From positions 152,705 to 216,704 of IMG/VR virus record IMGVR_UViG_3300037295_000263: DNA of 64,000 nt. The stretch is one strand, 5' to 3'. Below are positions 23,555-31,686 of this stretch, one piece after another (within the stretch, counting starts at the first letter, position 1; each line of letters starts with the position of its first letter). Under the pieces are notes generated by a model. That model saw only the letters and a list, made by a program, of their open reading frames with translations. It was not told where the DNA came from and searched no databases. The position numbers were made by a program, and so were the translations under genes. Source of the stretch: a virus (taxonomy: Duplodnaviria; Caudoviricetes).

Positions 23555-23776
23555 TTACCAGTTTTCTGAGCCTGAAACTTCTACTTCAAAGTTCCCAATA
23601 ATCCCGTTGACTTCTGTTTGAAGTCGCATAATAACTGTTGATCCGATGCCGCTACTTGAATCTTGTATTAATTCTACTGAGGTACTTTCTGGAAATTGTT
23701 TTAATACTTTCATAATTTTTTCTATTTCATGTATATTTAATTTCACTTTATTCACCTGTTTGTTGTCTGCGTTCAC
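23555..23776 (-). CDS. Hypothetical protein
   Basis: 73-aa ORF in co-oriented gene run. Confidence 0.6.
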   Translation of the reverse strand: MNADNKQVNKVKLNIHEIEKIMKVLKQFPESTSVELIQDSSSGIGSTVIMRLQTEVNGIIGNFEVEVSGSENW

Positions 23777-24317
23777 GTCTGGCTGCTGCTAAAGCAAATA
23801 CTTTTTCATTGTTAGTTTCCCACTCTATTTGTTGAGCTGGTACAGTAACGCCACTAGCAGTTTCATACCCATTAAATGAATGTTGTTCTTGTTCATCATA
23901 CAACCATCCTAGTTCCTTCATCATCAGGTGTTTGACCATTAAATTGGGACTGCGAAATATGCCTGTGTCCTCAAAGCCCAACATAACTCCAACTTCGCAT
24001 ACAGCACCTGATCTACAAATACCTGCATGGCAATGGACAATGACGTTTTTACCATCACGTAGTGCATATTGTAAAACGGTGACTAAATTTTTAGCATCCT
24101 TTTCTTTGACTTTATCAGATTCCGGATTAGGATCTTTAACTTCAGCATCTAGGAATTTGAATTGATAAATTTGCTCAAATTGATGCGTGGGTATTGGGAA
24201 TTCAGTATCGGGATCAACAATTTGAATTAGTATTGAATTGACACCTGGATCAACGTGAGTTCCATTCTTTACTGCTGACAACGAAACGTTTTGTATAAAT
24301 GGCATATTATTCCTCAA
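23748..24317 (-). CDS. Dual-specificity/protein-tyrosine phosphatase-like protein (likely start MPFIQ at 24305)
   Basis: VHCHAGICRS (HCX5R) active-site loop. Confidence 0.85.
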   Translation of the reverse strand: MRNNMPFIQNVSLSAVKNGTHVDPGVNSILIQIVDPDTEFPIPTHQFEQIYQFKFLDAEVKDPNPESDKVKEKDAKNLVTVLQYALRDGKNVIVHCHAGICRSGAVCEVGVMLGFEDTGIFRSPNLMVKHLMMKELGWLYDEQEQHSFNGYETASGVTVPAQQIEWETNNEKVFALAAARRERRQQTGE

Positions 24318-24535
24318 TAATCACTTTCGTATTCTTCTGTGTAGCCTTCGCTCATGTCAATAATGTTACTGAGGTTATTAGCGCCACGACGAATGTAACT
24401 GTTGCCGCCATCTGTGAATATCTCTCCACATTTACAATGTACCATATCATGGCGATAGGTACTAGTAATAATGTCTTCACATAATTTACATTGGCAGCGA
24501 TTAAGTGTTACAACTACTCTAGTTCTTGTAGGCAT
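24314..24535 (-). CDS. Small Zn-ribbon phage protein
   Basis: CKLC...CKCG..FTDGG..YIRRG. Confidence 0.7.
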   Translation of the reverse strand: MPTRTRVVVTLNRCQCKLCEDIITSTYRHDMVHCKCGEIFTDGGNSYIRRGANNLSNIIDMSEGYTEEYESDY

Positions 24536-24999: not shown

Positions 25000-25584
25000 T
25001 TATAGTATATTTTCTTGAGTTAATATAGATACAACTTCTTCACTTAGCGGAATCTCTGTTTTAACATTTAAATTTAATACTTCGTCGTTTAATTTTTGTT
25101 TTTGTTTTTTAAGATTTAGTATTTCAATTCTTGCTTGATCAATTTGACTTTGAGAAAGCACTCCTGTGATAATTCCTTCAGAATGTCCAAATATTGTTCG
25201 ACTTGTTTCTTTATAATTTTTCAATTTTTCAATTTGACCATGTATCATTTCAATAGGTTTCATCGGTGTAGCACCAGATAACGAATTTAGTTGAGAGATA
25301 CGCTTCTCCAAAAAAGCTGCCTTTGTTAATGCAATATCGATACCAGAGCTAGAGTTAGCAGTACCAACTAGCCCACGGATGTTATATACTGCTAATAGCA
25401 ATTTTTGTCTGCGCATATCTTTAGTAAAAACTAAATCATTAGCCGATTGCAGAGTTGAAGTAACATTTTCAAATTCACTAATATCAACAACTAAATTTAA
25501 TTCAATTTTTTCTAATAGTTCTACTATATTGTGCTGCAATGCATTTGCTTGCCTCAAAGATATATTCATTATCGAATTCTCCAA
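25000..25584 (-). CDS. Coiled-coil hypothetical protein
   Basis: 194-aa helical ORF. Confidence 0.65.
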   Translation of the reverse strand: MENSIMNISLRQANALQHNIVELLEKIELNLVVDISEFENVTSTLQSANDLVFTKDMRRQKLLLAVYNIRGLVGTANSSSGIDIALTKAAFLEKRISQLNSLSGATPMKPIEMIHGQIEKLKNYKETSRTIFGHSEGIITGVLSQSQIDQARIEILNLKKQKQKLNDEVLNLNVKTEIPLSEEVVSILTQENIL

Positions 25585-25802
25585 TTAGTGTTACGTGTGA
25601 CTTTGTCAGCTTTAAAGTTTTTTAAATAATCTTCCCAAGTGTACCTTCCTTCTTCGATATCTCGAATAGCAGATATTACAATTCCTTCTTTTCTTGGTAA
25701 GTCTTGTTTATCAAGCTGCCTTGCTCGTTGCACAGCAGCTAGTACTAATCTAAACTGACCGCCGACTTGCTTAGCAGCTTCTTGTGAAGTATAACGAGCC
25801 AT
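25569..25802 (-). CDS. rpoZ: RNA polymerase omega subunit homologue
   Basis: MARYTSQEAAKQVGGQFRLVLAAVQRARQL..AIRDIEEG matches the RpoZ pattern MARVT..D....V.NRF.LVL.AA.RARQL..AL.EI..G. Confidence 0.8.
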   Translation of the reverse strand: MARYTSQEAAKQVGGQFRLVLAAVQRARQLDKQDLPRKEGIVISAIRDIEEGRYTWEDYLKNFKADKVTRNTNWRIR

Positions 25803-25859
25803 TTAATTTCCTTAGGTTAACGAATTAGTAAAAGGTTGAGCGGTAAACTGTACAATATA

Positions 25860-26060
25860 CATGCAGCGTACTGCAAACAGCTGACATCTAACAACTTACA
25901 ATAAGGTATATTTCCGGTTAGCAAAATACAAAGTTTTAAACCGGATCATACTCAAGAAGGCAAATAAGCCAAGTTTCAAGAAAAATCTTGTTGTCTACTC
26001 TCTTTACCCTTTACTATTCGGACAGATATTACAGAATCTGTCAGTCTGATTAACTATAAT
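25860..26060 (-). ncRNA. Candidate structured leader/ncRNA upstream of rpoZ
   Basis: No ORF; helices 26021-26027/26036-26042, 25914-25919/25939-25944, 25862-25866/25871-25875; own promoter at 26068-26096. Confidence 0.4.
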
Positions 26061-26067
26061 ATAAACA

Positions 26068-26096
26068 ATTATACAAGTTTTTTAACATTAAGTCAA
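26068..26096 (-). promoter_or_regulatory. sigma70-type promoter
   Basis: TTGACT-17-TATAAT on minus strand. Confidence 0.75.
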
Positions 26097-26149
26097 CTGT
26101 TGTGTAATATTTTTTCATTATAGATATATACACGATAAGGAAATTTAAT

Positions 26150-27346
26150 ATGAAAATTGCAGTCACCGGTCTCGGTGTAGTATCGTGTCTTGGTAATTCG
26201 GTAGACGAATTATGGGATAATATTTGCCAAGGCAATACTGGCATACTGCCGTTTGAATTTGAGTCTGACGTTATTAAAACTAAAAAAGTTGGAAAGGTGA
26301 AAAATTTTATATTAAATCCAGAGTTCGATGCAAGATGGAAATCTAAAACTGACAAACATATACAATTTGCATTAAATGCTACTAAACAAGCAATTGATCA
26401 AAGTGGATTAAATTTCGAATCCGTTGATCCGGGCAGAGTGCATACTGTAATCGGAACAACTGCAGGCGGCTACGATTTTATTATCAATAACCAAAAAAGA
26501 ATCGATGCAGGAAAACCCTGCTTACCTAATTTTATTCCAGGACATATTAACAATATGATGAGTTCTTATATTAATATGCACTGGGGCATCGAAGGCAGCG
26601 GACTAGGAATCTCTGGAGCATGTGCTGCAGGAAGCCAGGCAATATCTGTTGCTGCCATGTTAATAGAAACTGGTCAAGCGGACGTTGTAGTATGCGGAGC
26701 CAGCGACAGTTGGCTATCCGAACTAACTATTAGCGGATTCGAAAGTTTAGGAGCACTTAGCTTTAATGAAGTTATGCCAAAACCGTTTGATCAATTTCGA
26801 GATGGATTTGCAATTAGTGAAGGGTCTGCCATTATAATTTTAGAAAGTATGGAACATGCGCAGTCCAGAAATGCAAATGTGTTAGCTGTGTTGTCTGGAT
26901 ATGGAATCAGTAACGATGCTTATCATCCTACTAGTCCTAATCCCGAAGGCCGGGCGTTTTTAAGAATGACTGACCAAGCAATGAATAGGGCAGGTATCTC
27001 ACACAACCAAGTTGATTATATAAATGCGCATGCTACTGCTACCAAAGTCGGAGATGCTGTAGAGTGTCAAAACTTATTTAAAATATTTAAAGATAATCCG
27101 TTTATAAGCAGCACTAAAAGTATGACAGGACATAGCATCGGAAGTACTAGTGCTATAGAAGCTGTTATATCTATTCTTTCAGTAAAAAACAATATTATTC
27201 CTGGAACTATTAATTTAACTAATATAGATCCACTCTGCCCAGGAAAACATGTTAAAGAAACTATTAGTCATTCTATAAATCATGCAGCTAGCACTAGCTT
27301 TGGTTTCGGAGGTACCAATGGAATTTTACTTTTTAGTAAAAATTAA
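26150..27346 (+). CDS. fabF: Beta-ketoacyl-ACP synthase II
   Basis: SGACAAG (Cys), DAYHPTSP, INAHATAT (His), KSMTGHSIG (His), SFGFGGTN. Confidence 0.93.
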   Translation: MKIAVTGLGVVSCLGNSVDELWDNICQGNTGILPFEFESDVIKTKKVGKVKNFILNPEFDARWKSKTDKHIQFALNATKQAIDQSGLNFESVDPGRVHTVIGTTAGGYDFIINNQKRIDAGKPCLPNFIPGHINNMMSSYINMHWGIEGSGLGISGACAAGSQAISVAAMLIETGQADVVVCGASDSWLSELTISGFESLGALSFNEVMPKPFDQFRDGFAISEGSAIIILESMEHAQSRNANVLAVLSGYGISNDAYHPTSPNPEGRAFLRMTDQAMNRAGISHNQVDYINAHATATKVGDAVECQNLFKIFKDNPFISSTKSMTGHSIGSTSAIEAVISILSVKNNIIPGTINLTNIDPLCPGKHVKETISHSINHAASTSFGFGGTNGILLFSKN

Positions 27347-28000: not shown

Positions 28001-29083
28001 TTAAAACGCATCGAAGTAATTGCCGTACTGCGGTGCTTTTACTTTGTCTAACACCACAGTAAATCCTTCTTGATTTGTAAACACAAAATTTCCAGTCTGA
28101 CTGTCAATTTTAACTAAGTCTATAGAATGAAATCTAGCGGCTAACCATTCGCGATCACCATCTTCGTCAAGTGTTTTTCCATGATAGTCGATTCGAACAA
28201 CACCTTGCAACGGATTGCCACTCCAACGTTGTGAATCTAAATCATCGCCCGACATTTCTTCACCATGGTGAATTAATTTAACATTATAATGATTGCCATC
28301 ATCAAATTCTGCTTTAACGTTGAGCATGCGTAGTGCATCCTGCGGACCTTCGTTGTAGCGATTCATTTCTTCAACTACGGCTTTTAACATGTCAAAGTTA
28401 AACTGTTTAAATAAAGAAGCGATTTGACACAGCTTGTCAATATGAATTTTAAGTTGATCTTTCAAGTTGTCGTTACAGTATTCTGTGATAAACTCAGCGT
28501 CAAGACCTTTGTAATCCAGCATGTAAAACAGTCGTCCAGGGCGGTTACGCATGTGTTGGTTAACACGCCATTTGTCATTACATGTCAGCACAAACAGCTT
28601 CTGGCTAGAAAACACACCGTCTAATAGAGTTAGTGCTTTTTCTTGATCCTCGTCGTCGTACACTTTTTCAAATTCGTCAAACAGCACAACACATGGCTGT
28701 TCGATAGTCTGCATAAAAGTATTAAACTTGTCACCACACCACGGAGCATTGATTACAATGCAAGGAATACTGTGTCGATCAGCAGCCACAACTGCTAAAT
28801 TCTTAGCCAATAAACTTTTTCCAGAACCTTTCTCACCAGCTAACATAACGCCTGTGCTGTTGCTACGACTCAGGAACGTGGTGAGTATACGATCTGTATT
28901 TTTATCAAGATCGCCGTACCGCTTGCCTTTGATTTCAAACGAGTCAATATGTTCAAGATACAATGGGCCGTCCATGGGTCTTTCTTTAACAACATAGTTG
29001 CCTGCTGGCAAAAGGTCGTGGATATCAACTTCTTCGTTTGAAGCTACGCTATATGTGTTGCCTGATTTGATAAAATATGACAC
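28001..29083 (-). CDS. AAA+ ATPase
   Basis: GEKGSGKS Walker A, VLFDEFEK Walker B, RNRPGR. Confidence 0.9.
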   Translation of the reverse strand: MSYFIKSGNTYSVASNEEVDIHDLLPAGNYVVKERPMDGPLYLEHIDSFEIKGKRYGDLDKNTDRILTTFLSRSNSTGVMLAGEKGSGKSLLAKNLAVVAADRHSIPCIVINAPWCGDKFNTFMQTIEQPCVVLFDEFEKVYDDEDQEKALTLLDGVFSSQKLFVLTCNDKWRVNQHMRNRPGRLFYMLDYKGLDAEFITEYCNDNLKDQLKIHIDKLCQIASLFKQFNFDMLKAVVEEMNRYNEGPQDALRMLNVKAEFDDGNHYNVKLIHHGEEMSGDDLDSQRWSGNPLQGVVRIDYHGKTLDEDGDREWLAARFHSIDLVKIDSQTGNFVFTNQEGFTVVLDKVKAPQYGNYFDAF

Positions 29084-29112: not shown

Positions 29113-29141
29113 ATTATAACAAATTTGTTGATTACTGTCAA
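29113..29141 (-). promoter_or_regulatory. sigma70-type promoter
   Basis: TTGACA-17-TATAAT. Confidence 0.8.
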
Positions 29142-29773
29142 TCCTTTCGTTTAACATAATTAAGTCGAGACATGTTATTGGCTTGGTGTTTTTTAATTTT
29201 GCCAGTAATAACAACTTTTTCATCAGCTTGATATTTTTCTTTAGTAAAAAATGTTACATAGTGACTGTCCACCCATCCGCCTACAGCATATTTTCCGTAA
29301 AATTCAACCCATTCGGATTTAGTAACATTTAAGGTGCCACCTACTTTGTCTCCGCGGTCACCACTAATAGGACTAGTGTATAATAATTCACGGTTTAAAT
29401 TAATGCTAATGCGTTCTTCTCTAGCTATTTTAGGTAAACAGCTAACTATTGAAATTTCAGTAGTATCTGAACCAGTAAACTCGTTTATGTTGCACGTCTT
29501 AACAACCATTTTTTCAAACCCAGATAACGAACGTTTTAGCATAGTTAATAAATAACAATTAAAATGTTTCCTGTAATCTTGGCCTGCTTCTACTTCTTCT
29601 GGAGTAGCTTCTATATTTTCTATTAACCATTTTTTTAATAAAATCTTGTTGGCTATTTTGTCTTCTGTTTCGGTATGTATGGAGATTTTACAATACCCAT
29701 CATTAAGCGTATCGGCTCTAACAGCAAGCCCCCATACTTGATCAGCTGAATATGTCATTCTGTAGTGTCCCAT
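29138..29773 (-). CDS. Hypothetical protein with C-terminal OB-like part (likely start MTYSA at 29758)
   Basis: 211-aa ORF; KVVITGKIKKH..SRLNYVK. Confidence 0.65.
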   Translation of the reverse strand: MGHYRMTYSADQVWGLAVRADTLNDGYCKISIHTETEDKIANKILLKKWLIENIEATPEEVEAGQDYRKHFNCYLLTMLKRSLSGFEKMVVKTCNINEFTGSDTTEISIVSCLPKIAREERISINLNRELLYTSPISGDRGDKVGGTLNVTKSEWVEFYGKYAVGGWVDSHYVTFFTKEKYQADEKVVITGKIKKHQANNMSRLNYVKRKD

Positions 29774-29922
29774 ACAAGTTTAGCAGCAACGCAAGCCATC
29801 AAAAACAATCCAAGTATACAAATGAAAAGACTAGGAAATATATCGGCTCCGTTATCCAGAGCTCCTACACCTCCATACACCATTAATAGCCCGACAATAA
29901 AACAAAATGTAGATAAATTCAT
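29755..29922 (-). CDS. Small two-TM membrane protein (55 aa, not in ORF track)
   Basis: MNLSTFCFIVGLLMVYGGVGALDNGADIFPSLFICILGLFLMACVAAKLVWDTTE; AGGAG RBS. Confidence 0.6.
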   Translation of the reverse strand: MNLSTFCFIVGLLMVYGGVGALDNGADIFPSLFICILGLFLMACVAAKLVWDTTE

Positions 29923-29992
29923 TTCTGCTCCTAGTGTGTATAGTTTTAGTAGTTGTCATTGTAGCGCAGATATTTTCAAGTGTCAAACGTTT

Positions 29993-30181
29993 TTAAATAT
30001 TATTATCGAGAGTACTGTCTGCCCGTTTAAGCCCTGATAAACTGCAGGCTCCTCAGTAGCTGTGCGGCCCACCACAGGCCATCTCCAAATTGAAGACATA
30101 GGTACAAGGATCGTATTCGCTTTAGACAGTTAAGCTGTTGGTTAAACACTTTACTCCCGGACTCTCGATAATAATATTTAA
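29993..30181. ncRNA. Candidate ~190-nt structured RNA closed by a 21-bp perfect stem
   Basis: 29993-30013 is the exact reverse complement of 30161-30181; inner helix ACTGTCT 30014-30020 / AGACAGT 30124-30130. Confidence 0.5.
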
Positions 30182-30213
30182 CACTGTTTACTTAGATTCT
30201 AAGTAAACAGTGT
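30181..30213. repeat. Perfect 33-bp palindrome (16-bp arms, 1-nt centre)
   Basis: ACACTGTTTACTTAGA-T-TCTAAGTAAACAGTGT. Confidence 0.9.
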
Positions 30214-30335
30214 CTGCACTAACGTTACGACGTCGGCAATATTTCTCGAACTTGATATCCATATTTTTTAATAACGTGGTTAGGTTGTTGTGACGCTTTC
30301 ATTATAATATTATCGTTAGTTAATGTTATGCTGTA

Positions 30336-30364
30336 ATTATACACAAGATACTACACAGTGTCAA
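30336..30364 (-). promoter_or_regulatory. sigma70-type promoter
   Basis: TTGACA-17-TATAAT with extended TG. Confidence 0.8.
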
Positions 30365-30379
30365 CTGTTTAAAAATCGG

Positions 30380-30467
30380 CGGAAGGCTAGAGAGTCGAAC
30401 TCTAAAGGCGCTATTAACACTCGGCTGTTTTCAAGACAGATCCCATCACCAGTTGGGTTGGCCTTCC
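30380..30467 (-). tRNA. tRNA-Ser(TGA)
   Basis: GGAAGGC acceptor, loop CTTGAAA, long variable arm, GTTCGAC T-loop; no encoded CCA. Confidence 0.88.
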
Positions 30468-30474
30468 TTTACTT

Positions 30475-30550
30475 TGGAGTACATGACAGGAATCGAACCT
30501 GCATACACAGGATTTGCAATCCTGTCCCTAGCCTTTCGGGTCACATGTAC
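30475..30550 (-). tRNA. tRNA-Cys(GCA)
   Basis: GTACATG/CATGTAC acceptor, loop TTGCAAA, CCA end. Confidence 0.9.
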
Positions 30551-30557
30551 ATTGTTT

Positions 30558-30633
30558 TGGCATCCCCGGAAGGCCTCGAACCTTCAACCTCTGGTTTTGG
30601 AGACCAGCACTCTGCCAATTGAGCTACGGAGAT
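30558..30633 (-). tRNA. tRNA-Trp(CCA)
   Basis: AGCTCAATTGGCAGAGT D-arm, loop CTCCAAA, CCA end. Confidence 0.92.
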
Positions 30634-30639
30634 ATTGAT

Positions 30640-30700
30640 TGGTACAGCGTACGGAATTCGAACTCTCAAATACACCTTGGCAAGGTGTCAGGCGTGATAA
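30640..30700 (-). pseudogene. Broken tRNA-Gly(GCC)-like remnant
   Basis: Anticodon arm ACACC-TTGCCAA-GGTGT, TTCGAAT and CCA present; T-stem unpaired and 5' acceptor/D-arm missing. Confidence 0.6.
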
Positions 30701-30742
30701 CGATTGTGGGTTTAGTATAGCTGTTCATGATATTTCCTGTAG

Positions 30743-30843
30743 GTTATATTAAAGCACACAGTGTTTTGAGGTATTTAAACTATGCCATTGGGGTTACCAA
30801 ATTCACGAGATTCCCGTCTCGATCCTATGTGCTTTAATATAAC
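30743..30843. repeat. 16-bp inverted-repeat cassette between tRNAs
   Basis: GTTATATTAAAGCACA 30743-30758 / TGTGCTTTAATATAAC 30828-30843. Confidence 0.85.
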
Positions 30844-30884
30844 AATAATTGTACTAGGTTAACGTTGACTTGTCAACTATGTTG

Positions 30885-30960
30885 TGGTATCTCCAACCGG
30901 ATTTGAACCGGTGTGGTTCCCGTGAAAGGGGAAAATCCTAGGCCGCTAGATGATGGAGAT
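30885..30960 (-). tRNA. tRNA-Glu(TTC)
   Basis: ATCTCCA/TGGAGAT acceptor, loop CTTTCAC, GTTCAAATCC, CCA. Confidence 0.9.
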
Positions 30961-31058
30961 AATTGTTGGCTCCAAATATTAGCTTGGAACCTAGTAGACA
31001 TAAATTATGAAAATTAAAACAACTAGTTAATGAGTACGATAAGAAATAATACACTCTG

Positions 31059-31139
31059 CTCCGCCTCGAGGATTCGAACCTCGCCCTTTCGGATCTCCGG
31101 TTAACAGCCGGGTGCCTTCGCCTAGCCAGCCCAAGCGGA
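31059..31139 (-). tRNA. tRNA-Asn(GTT) with an unusually long variable arm
   Basis: TCCGCTT/AGGCGGA acceptor, loop CTGTTAA, variable region GATCCGAAAGGG, no CCA. Confidence 0.8.
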
Positions 31140-31530
31140 GCACAGTATACTGCATCGAAATAAACTTTACTTCTATTAATTATCTTGTTAAACAAGATAA
31201 AACTAATTCTTACGGTTTTACACAAGACAGGATAACCGAAAACTTGTCATATTTCCTTACGGACTTGTTTCTATTTAATTCCATTAATTATGTTGTTTCG
31301 TTATGGAACAGGCCCAACCCCGTTCATTTGCTTTTAACAAACTATGCTTACATACAGGATGATCAATCCAATCTCGTCATAGTTTAACTCGTGTACCTTG
31401 ATAGTCGACATCCAGTACAGTGAGAGTGCATTATGATATACGCCCAATTTTCCAAAACAACATAATTAATGCAATTTATCTTTAGATGAATTAAAAAATA
31501 AAATTAAAATCTGGAATCAAAAGTACATCG

Positions 31531-31603
31531 AGCGGCGTATCGGGCTTGAACCGATGACCTCTAACTTGGAAGGATAGCGTTCTACCAACTGAACTAACGC
31601 CGC
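31531..31603 (-). tRNA. tRNA-Gly(TCC)
   Basis: GCGGCGT/ACGCCGC acceptor, GTTCAGTTGGTAGAAC, loop CTTCCAA; no CCA. Confidence 0.88.
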
Positions 31604-31657
31604 TCGATGTACTCTGTTACCATTAAACTAATCCCGCATATTAATTACTATACACTA

Positions 31658-31686
31658 ATTATAAACTACTTGTTACTGTTTGTCAA
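31658..31686 (-). promoter_or_regulatory. sigma70-type promoter
   Basis: TTGACA-17-TATAAT. Confidence 0.8.

Follow-up and report, generated by a model that had tools for sequence, protein, structure and literature searches.

An RNA polymerase omega homologue encoded by an uncultured T4-like phage, in an operon with a structured leader RNA and a conserved helical protein

A gene at 25569..25802 on the minus strand of the window (the whole 64-kb stretch of phage DNA that was analysed) encodes a genuine homologue of the RNA polymerase omega subunit, one that is made by the phage and kept under selection. The gene belongs to an operon whose order is promoter, leader RNA of about 260 nt, omega as the first gene, and then a gene for a 189-residue protein. 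We lean, with some reserve, toward a reading in which the phage fits its own omega into host RNA polymerase and the C-terminal helix of this omega changes what the omega face of the enzyme binds.

The phage genome and its reliance on host polymerase

The IMG/VR virus record that holds the gene is linear, 216,704 bases long, 36% G+C and about 59% complete by CheckV, and the window is its last 64 kb. It derives from a giant T4-like phage, uncultured and aquatic. It encodes a T4-type major capsid protein gp23 (PF07068, 271.8 bits), a T4 RnlA-like protein and further phage genes, an array of 10 tRNAs lies in the window, and phage genes flank omega on both sides. No gene for beta, beta' or a T7-type enzyme was found in the 216.7 kb of the record, although a phage polymerase could still be encoded elsewhere because the record is only about 59% complete. 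A genome search with Sigma70_r2 gave no match, with a model that would probably miss a gp55-type late sigma. Near-consensus sigma-70 promoters with no more than one mismatch number 43, of which 11 are perfect, as compared with 12-21 in first-order Markov simulations, an approximately threefold enrichment. The lack of polymerase genes in this incomplete record, together with the enrichment of sigma-70 promoters, suggests that the phage depends on host RNA polymerase. The preliminary description of this DNA had claimed both a genome rich in consensus sigma70 promoters and a dependence on the host enzyme, and the counts agree with it on each point.

Several neighbouring features were recorded. 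A cluster of promoters surrounds the tRNA array (29113-31686, minus strand). Three of them, with ends at 31658, 30336 and 29113, match TTGACA-17-TATAAT perfectly, and two have one mismatch. A full-length FabF-like beta-ketoacyl synthase gene (26150-27346, plus strand; PF00109 144.7 bits, PF02801 104 bits), which is unusual cargo for a phage, is divergent from the omega operon, and between it and the tRNA array lies a gene for an AAA ATPase (28001-29083, minus strand; phrog_2376, 298 bits) with weaker clamp-loader similarity. Downstream of the operon, at 23748-24535 on the minus strand, are genes for a Cys-rich DUF7695 protein of 73 aa (70.5 bits) and a dual-specificity phosphatase-like protein (PF00782, 35.7 bits, HCxxGxxRS). 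Loci L007 and L008 have a DSPc gene near the operon too.

The omega gene and the fold of its product

The omega (rpoZ-like) open reading frame, P0001, runs from an ATG at 25802-25800 to a TAA stop at 25571-25569 and encodes 77 amino acids, beginning MARYTSQ. A Shine-Dalgarno sequence, AAGGA (25813-25809, minus strand), is located 6 nt 5' of the ATG. The RpoZ family threshold had been proposed as a check on the assignment, and the two available models divide on it: the protein scores above the cut-off of the NCBIfam rpoZ equivalog TIGR00690 (34.2 bits against 23.6, E 2e-8, model positions 1-57/60) but falls narrowly below the gathering threshold of Pfam PF01192, RNA_pol_Rpb6 (24.6 bits against 26, 1.4 short; E 2.5e-5, model positions 4-51/53). 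In a six-frame genome search TIGR00690 again placed the gene above its cut-off, at 30.9 bits. A precomputed table assigns PF01192 to 17/17 close relatives, and the JGI pipeline annotates relatives as omega. Searching PDB chains by phmmer aligned residues 1-53 with residues 1-58 of E. coli omega (E 6.5e-6), and every significant PDB sequence match (E < 0.001) was an omega chain; identity to E. coli omega is 44% by tblastn. Three small deletions make the loop between helix 2 and helix 3 about 5 residues shorter than that of E. coli.

The AF2 model, for which 32 phage omegas were used, has a pLDDT of 77 and shows helices at residues 6-13, 16-32 and 41-50 and a short fourth helix at 56-62. The first three match the three-alpha-helix fold described for the omega N-terminus (PMC9973325). 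All of the best 50 Foldseek PDB matches listed are chains from entries for RNA polymerase or omega complexes, and the best ones were omega chains of the E. coli, Vibrio, Francisella, Pseudomonas and Mycobacterium polymerases, led by 7chw_E (TM 0.64/0.65, rmsd 2.8 A, 37% identity). With so small a protein their E-values are weak, at 6e-3 and above. Twelve positions (A9, G14, V20, L21, A23, R26, A27, R28, A45, I49, E50 and G52) vary little or not at all among the 32 phage omegas, and each has the residue found at the aligned position of E. coli omega. The C-terminus, RYTWEDYLKNFK followed by a basic tail, is unlike that of bacterial omegas and is conserved among the phage relatives. The score against TIGR00690, the alignment to E. 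coli omega and the omega-like fold thus bear out the earlier recognition of an RpoZ N-terminal signature in a 77-aa protein; the C-terminus that was then called divergent does differ from bacterial omegas, though it is conserved among its phage relatives.

Relatives, a phage-only clade and selection

A word-index search returned 17 relatives of 80-81 residues and 61-70% identity, all of them metagenomic. Across the 18 close relatives M1, A2, R3, T5, S6 and Q7 are invariant, and the core motifs and a C-terminal block, E-E-G-R-Y-T-W-D-D-Y-x-x-N-F-K-P, followed by a basic tail, vary little or not at all. When 1.84 billion representatives were searched with a profile, 147 clusters were recovered at E<=0.001; the nearest all carry E-I-E-E-G-x-Y-T-x-E-D-Y, and obviously bacterial sequences appear only from about E 1e-8. 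Within the 32 phage omegas Y54 is nearly invariant and T55 invariant. The family motifs, A-[LI]-x-[ED]-I-E-x-G-x-Y among them, were scanned twice against 185,579 species genomes of bacteria and archaea, and no omega with this Y-T motif after helix 3 was found. Pairwise dN/dS among the phage omegas is 0.03-0.14 (9 measurable pairs), and the gene family is under strong purifying selection. With 17 relatives at 61-70% identity, 147 clusters and dN/dS in this range, the omega match is far beyond chance.

In a quick maximum-likelihood tree, 123 phage-type rows stand apart from 47 gamma-/alpha-proteobacterial-like rows (SH-aLRT 91), and the family of the window's omega is nested among the omegas with the Y-T motif. 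The tree was made by a quick search over 81 alignment columns, and its bacterial groups are labelled by N-terminal motifs alone; it contains no named bacterial omegas because the cellular motif scans gave no relative.

Among GenBank phages, tblastn with two omegas found no member of the phage clade, only host-type rpoZ in bacterial or suspect records; tblastn with a downstream-type omega (described below) gave no match, nor did megablast with 6 kb around the omega gene, and no PHROGs family matched omega. The rpoZ copies in MG065691.1 and MG065686.1 (Campylobacter phages A11a and A18a), OR845831.1 and OR851528.1 score exactly like Salmonella copies, with 43.9% and 50% identity to the two omega queries, and are probably host or contaminant DNA, not phage omegas. 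We found no paper describing a phage-encoded omega, in a search that could miss papers using only the symbol since the Greek letter is unsearchable.

These data also dispose of the idea that the gene is host DNA that a chimeric contig brought in, or a passenger in decay. The omega-like matches in GenBank 'phage' records are indeed all of host type and in bacterial or contaminated-looking records. Against it, this contig carries gp23, the 10-tRNA array and phage genes on both sides of omega, the gene recurs in the same operon on many phage contigs, and the dN/dS values are not those of a non-functional gene. A non-phage or non-functional origin is effectively refuted.

Operon promoter and leader RNA

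A sigma-70-type promoter, TTGACT-17-TATAAT (26068..26096, minus strand), matches the consensus at 11/12 positions and lies about 266 nt 5' of the omega start; in related loci this operon likewise begins with a homologous promoter. No T4 late box was found in the 348 nt upstream of omega. The operon thus appears to be of early type and would be read by host sigma-70 polymerase.

Between promoter and gene is an ORF-free leader RNA of about 260 nt (25803..26062, minus strand), structured and conserved, that ends at the AAGGA Shine-Dalgarno sequence. Its minimum free energy is -66.7 kcal/mol, with a z of -4.07 against shuffles. Homologous leaders occur at 62 non-identical loci, both where omega comes first and where the operon opens with the partner gene. 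Of the 42 pairs predicted by RNAalifold, 25 show compensatory changes. At pair 91/401, for example, 37 sequences have G-C and 21 have A-U, and at pair 194/298 A-U occurs in 31 sequences and G-C in 26. Long-range closing helices pair AAAGGT...ATAGAC with GTCTAT...ACCTTT. Rfam 15 had no match at E<=1 on either strand of 25700-26200. Two variants of the leader region were seen: in L075:1990-2292 the leader has an internal tandem duplication of about 65 nt that spans the conserved TGTCATTTGTTAATCGGAAATAT block, and in L027:2201-2503 and L091:2201-2503 a second TTGAC...TATAAT promoter-like insert lies between the leader and the partner start codon.

The 189-residue partner protein and its linkage to omega

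The second gene, P0165 (25000..25569, minus strand), encodes an all-helical protein of 189 aa, here called the partner. Its ATG (25569-25567) overlaps the omega TAA as TAATG, an overlap by which the partner is predicted to be translationally coupled to omega. Relatives of the partner fall into >1000 clusters, nearly all viral. An AF2 model (pLDDT 84, pTM 0.71) is a helical bundle. Family searches found nothing in Pfam or PHROGs at E<=0.01 and nothing in NCBIfam at E<=1, and a family search over 35 partner relatives gave only weak coiled-coil noise; a DIP1984-like label was not borne out by NCBIfam at this cut-off. Foldseek PDB and wide VIA-align matches were to generic helical bundles; the best Z, 9.6, is too low to be informative for a helical protein, and these matches were set aside. 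The BFVD matches are only to uncharacterised phage proteins, e.g. Caulobacter phage CcrColossus K4K6G4, and tblastn of the partner against GenBank phages gave no match. Across Foldseek PDB, BFVD, VIA-align and HMM searches, no recognisable fold or family tied the partner to transcription. A complex prediction for omega plus partner scored 0.00, a value that carries no weight for or against binding.

Linkage was assessed in 90 loci that carry the partner, with ORFs scored by omega profiles. Omega is adjacent to the partner in 63 of these, 47 times upstream and 16 times downstream. The upstream omegas are immediately 5' of the partner, with gaps of -47 to +1 nt and nearly always overlapping it. 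Fifteen of the downstream omegas lie 94-653 nt beyond the partner on the same strand, and one overlaps the partner end. Of the remaining loci, 24 have no omega within 2.5 kb of the partner and 3 have too little upstream room to judge. The upstream omegas are of the Y-T type; those downstream form a separate clade (SH-aLRT 99) whose members are extended at the N-terminus by M-K-L-T-D-S-R-G-P and end in I-G-R-E-Y-L. The genes on either side vary from locus to locus, so it is the omega-partner pair and not the neighbourhood that is kept together. The partner, for its part, does not need a phage omega, since the 24 loci lack one within 2.5 kb and five partner-only contigs of 84-169 kb have none that we could find along their sequence. 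Most simply read, the constant unit consists of promoter, leader and partner, and omega is an insert in it that is optional but has been retained repeatedly.

The ppGpp contacts

Omega Ala2 and Arg3 contact the ppGpp 5' diphosphate at site 1 (PMC13192712). Both residues are present in this phage omega and invariant in its 18 close relatives, and Arg47, which aligns to E. coli Arg52, is kept as well; at positions 4 and 6, where E. coli has V, this omega has Y and S respectively. With Ala2, Arg3 and Arg47 retained, site 1 appears to have been kept rather than lost in this omega. The N-termini of sister omegas vary: 10 or 11 of 33 upstream-type sisters lack MAR, and 16/16 downstream-type omegas have an N-terminal extension. 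In L071, an apparent exception, MAR is present behind a GTG start. Because of this variation, whatever function the phage omegas have in common would be independent of the ppGpp contacts, and some lineages may have shed them.

The preliminary description had proposed that subunit swapping could make RNA polymerase insensitive to ppGpp. In such an escape phage omega would displace host omega and destroy site 1, leaving a polymerase that ignores the stringent response. The part that omega plays in site 1 through Ala2 and Arg3, the altered N-termini of sister omegas in the same operon and the changes at positions 4 and 6 all lend this some appeal. The invariance of M1, A2, R3, T5, S6 and Q7 in the close family and the retention of Arg47 speak against it, and for this phage we judge such an escape very improbable.

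Comparison with known systems

Proteobacterial RpoZ (E. coli omega 7chw_E, 4jk1_J) resembles the phage protein in its N-terminal MAR, three-helix fold and length of <100 residues, and the two share the motifs G-x-x-F-x-L-V-L-x-A-x-x-R-A-R-Q and the helix A-I/L-R-D/E-I-E-E-G. The phage omega differs in that its gene sits in a T4-like phage and not beside cellular genes, in an operon with a structured leader and a helical protein; it has a conserved R-Y-T-W-D-D-Y-x-x-N-F-K helix and basic tail where RpoZ has an acidic, variable C-terminus, a shorter helix 2-3 loop (by about 5 residues), and a place in a separate phage-type clade.

Omega has a precedent as a docking site in the Rhodobacter gene transfer agent, where GafA activates gene-transfer-agent genes by binding omega, so that a virus-like element redirects the polymerase to its own genes (PMC9638019). 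In that system omega is the host's and the element supplies the binding factor, whereas here the phage supplies omega and binding by the partner is only proposed. We saw no similarity between GafA and the 189-residue partner.

T4-type phages appropriate host RNA polymerase with gp55, gp33, AsiA/MotA and Alt/Mod. Sigma, alpha and the beta flap are the parts that these factors replace or modify. The present phage is likewise T4-like, has no detected polymerase, would have to reprogram the host enzyme, and has small proteins of apparently early type. The difference is that the protein described here is a phage copy of a core subunit; to our knowledge no T4 factor is such a copy. The Foldseek PDB matches of omega included 7d7d, an entry that belongs to T4-type appropriation.

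Discussion

In the reading that we favour, host sigma-70 polymerase would transcribe phage omega from the early-type promoter, and phage omega would bind host beta' at the usual seat of host omega, giving the infected cell a polymerase with a phage part. The proposed binding to beta' draws on the conserved core positions of phage omegas, at which aligned E. coli omega has the same residues. Phage omega would have retained the three-helix core and the Ala2-Arg3 of proteobacterial omegas, with the variable bacterial C-terminus apparently swapped for a short, conserved, phage-specific helix, G-x-Y-T-x-x-D-Y. This helix would alter the contacts of the omega face, most plausibly for a phage factor, and the first candidate ligand is the co-translated 189-residue protein. 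Incorporation into host polymerase, as well as any effect on promoter choice, is what we infer from the sequences. Omega is dispensable in many bacteria, and therefore the effect of a phage omega may be subtle.

A simpler proposal is that phage omega is a plain spare part, one that keeps beta' folded and the polymerase assembled after host expression stops and leaves regulation unchanged. The best-established role of omega is to act as a chaperone in the folding and assembly of beta' (PMC5811629), and this, together with the retained core residues, favours the proposal. It leaves unexplained why a C-terminal motif absent from cellular omegas is conserved like the core (Y54, T55), and also the conserved coupling to a partner gene and a leader RNA; we regard it as unlikely, if still credible. 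Those same core residues bear on the contrary idea, that the protein is a decoy or poison, an omega mimic that titrates an omega-reading host factor or binds beta' unproductively and so aids host shut-off. The rebuilt C-terminus, the helix 2-3 loop some 5 residues shorter than that of E. coli and the predicted early expression would suit such an agent. However, all of the core that faces beta' is conserved as it is in functional omegas, and a T4-like phage, which this one is by its gp23, relies on host polymerase all through infection, so that poisoning appears improbable. At the other extreme, omega on beta', a Y-T helix that recruits the partner and a leader that senses the proteins or the polymerase to set the dose could together form a three-part takeover device. 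We hold this to be distinctly unlikely; if true, the two omega clades that flank the same partner gene would represent repeated selection for the pairing.

New here are the architecture of the operon, the linkage counts, the placing of omegas from two clades at two different positions next to one gene, the phage-specific Y-T motif absent from the scanned cellular genomes, and the intact ppGpp contacts of this omega. The preliminary description mentioned neither the operon setting, with its leader RNA and coupled partner gene, nor the C-terminal motif that phage omegas conserve. Phage strategies known so far act on sigma factors, by addition, replacement or modification, or else modify alpha and beta. 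A core-subunit copy supplied by the phage would be a different route to host RNA polymerase, and one that, with a protein of just 77 residues, is easy to test in vitro. On the practical side, rpoZ has been used as a bacterial marker in metagenome work (PMC10134851), and studies of this kind may be counting phage copies. The phage omega family is widespread in uncultured aquatic T4-like phages, and the operon would give an uncharacterised leader RNA and a very common 189-residue protein their first functional context. For omega itself, whose role is still debated, a clear selected function would follow.
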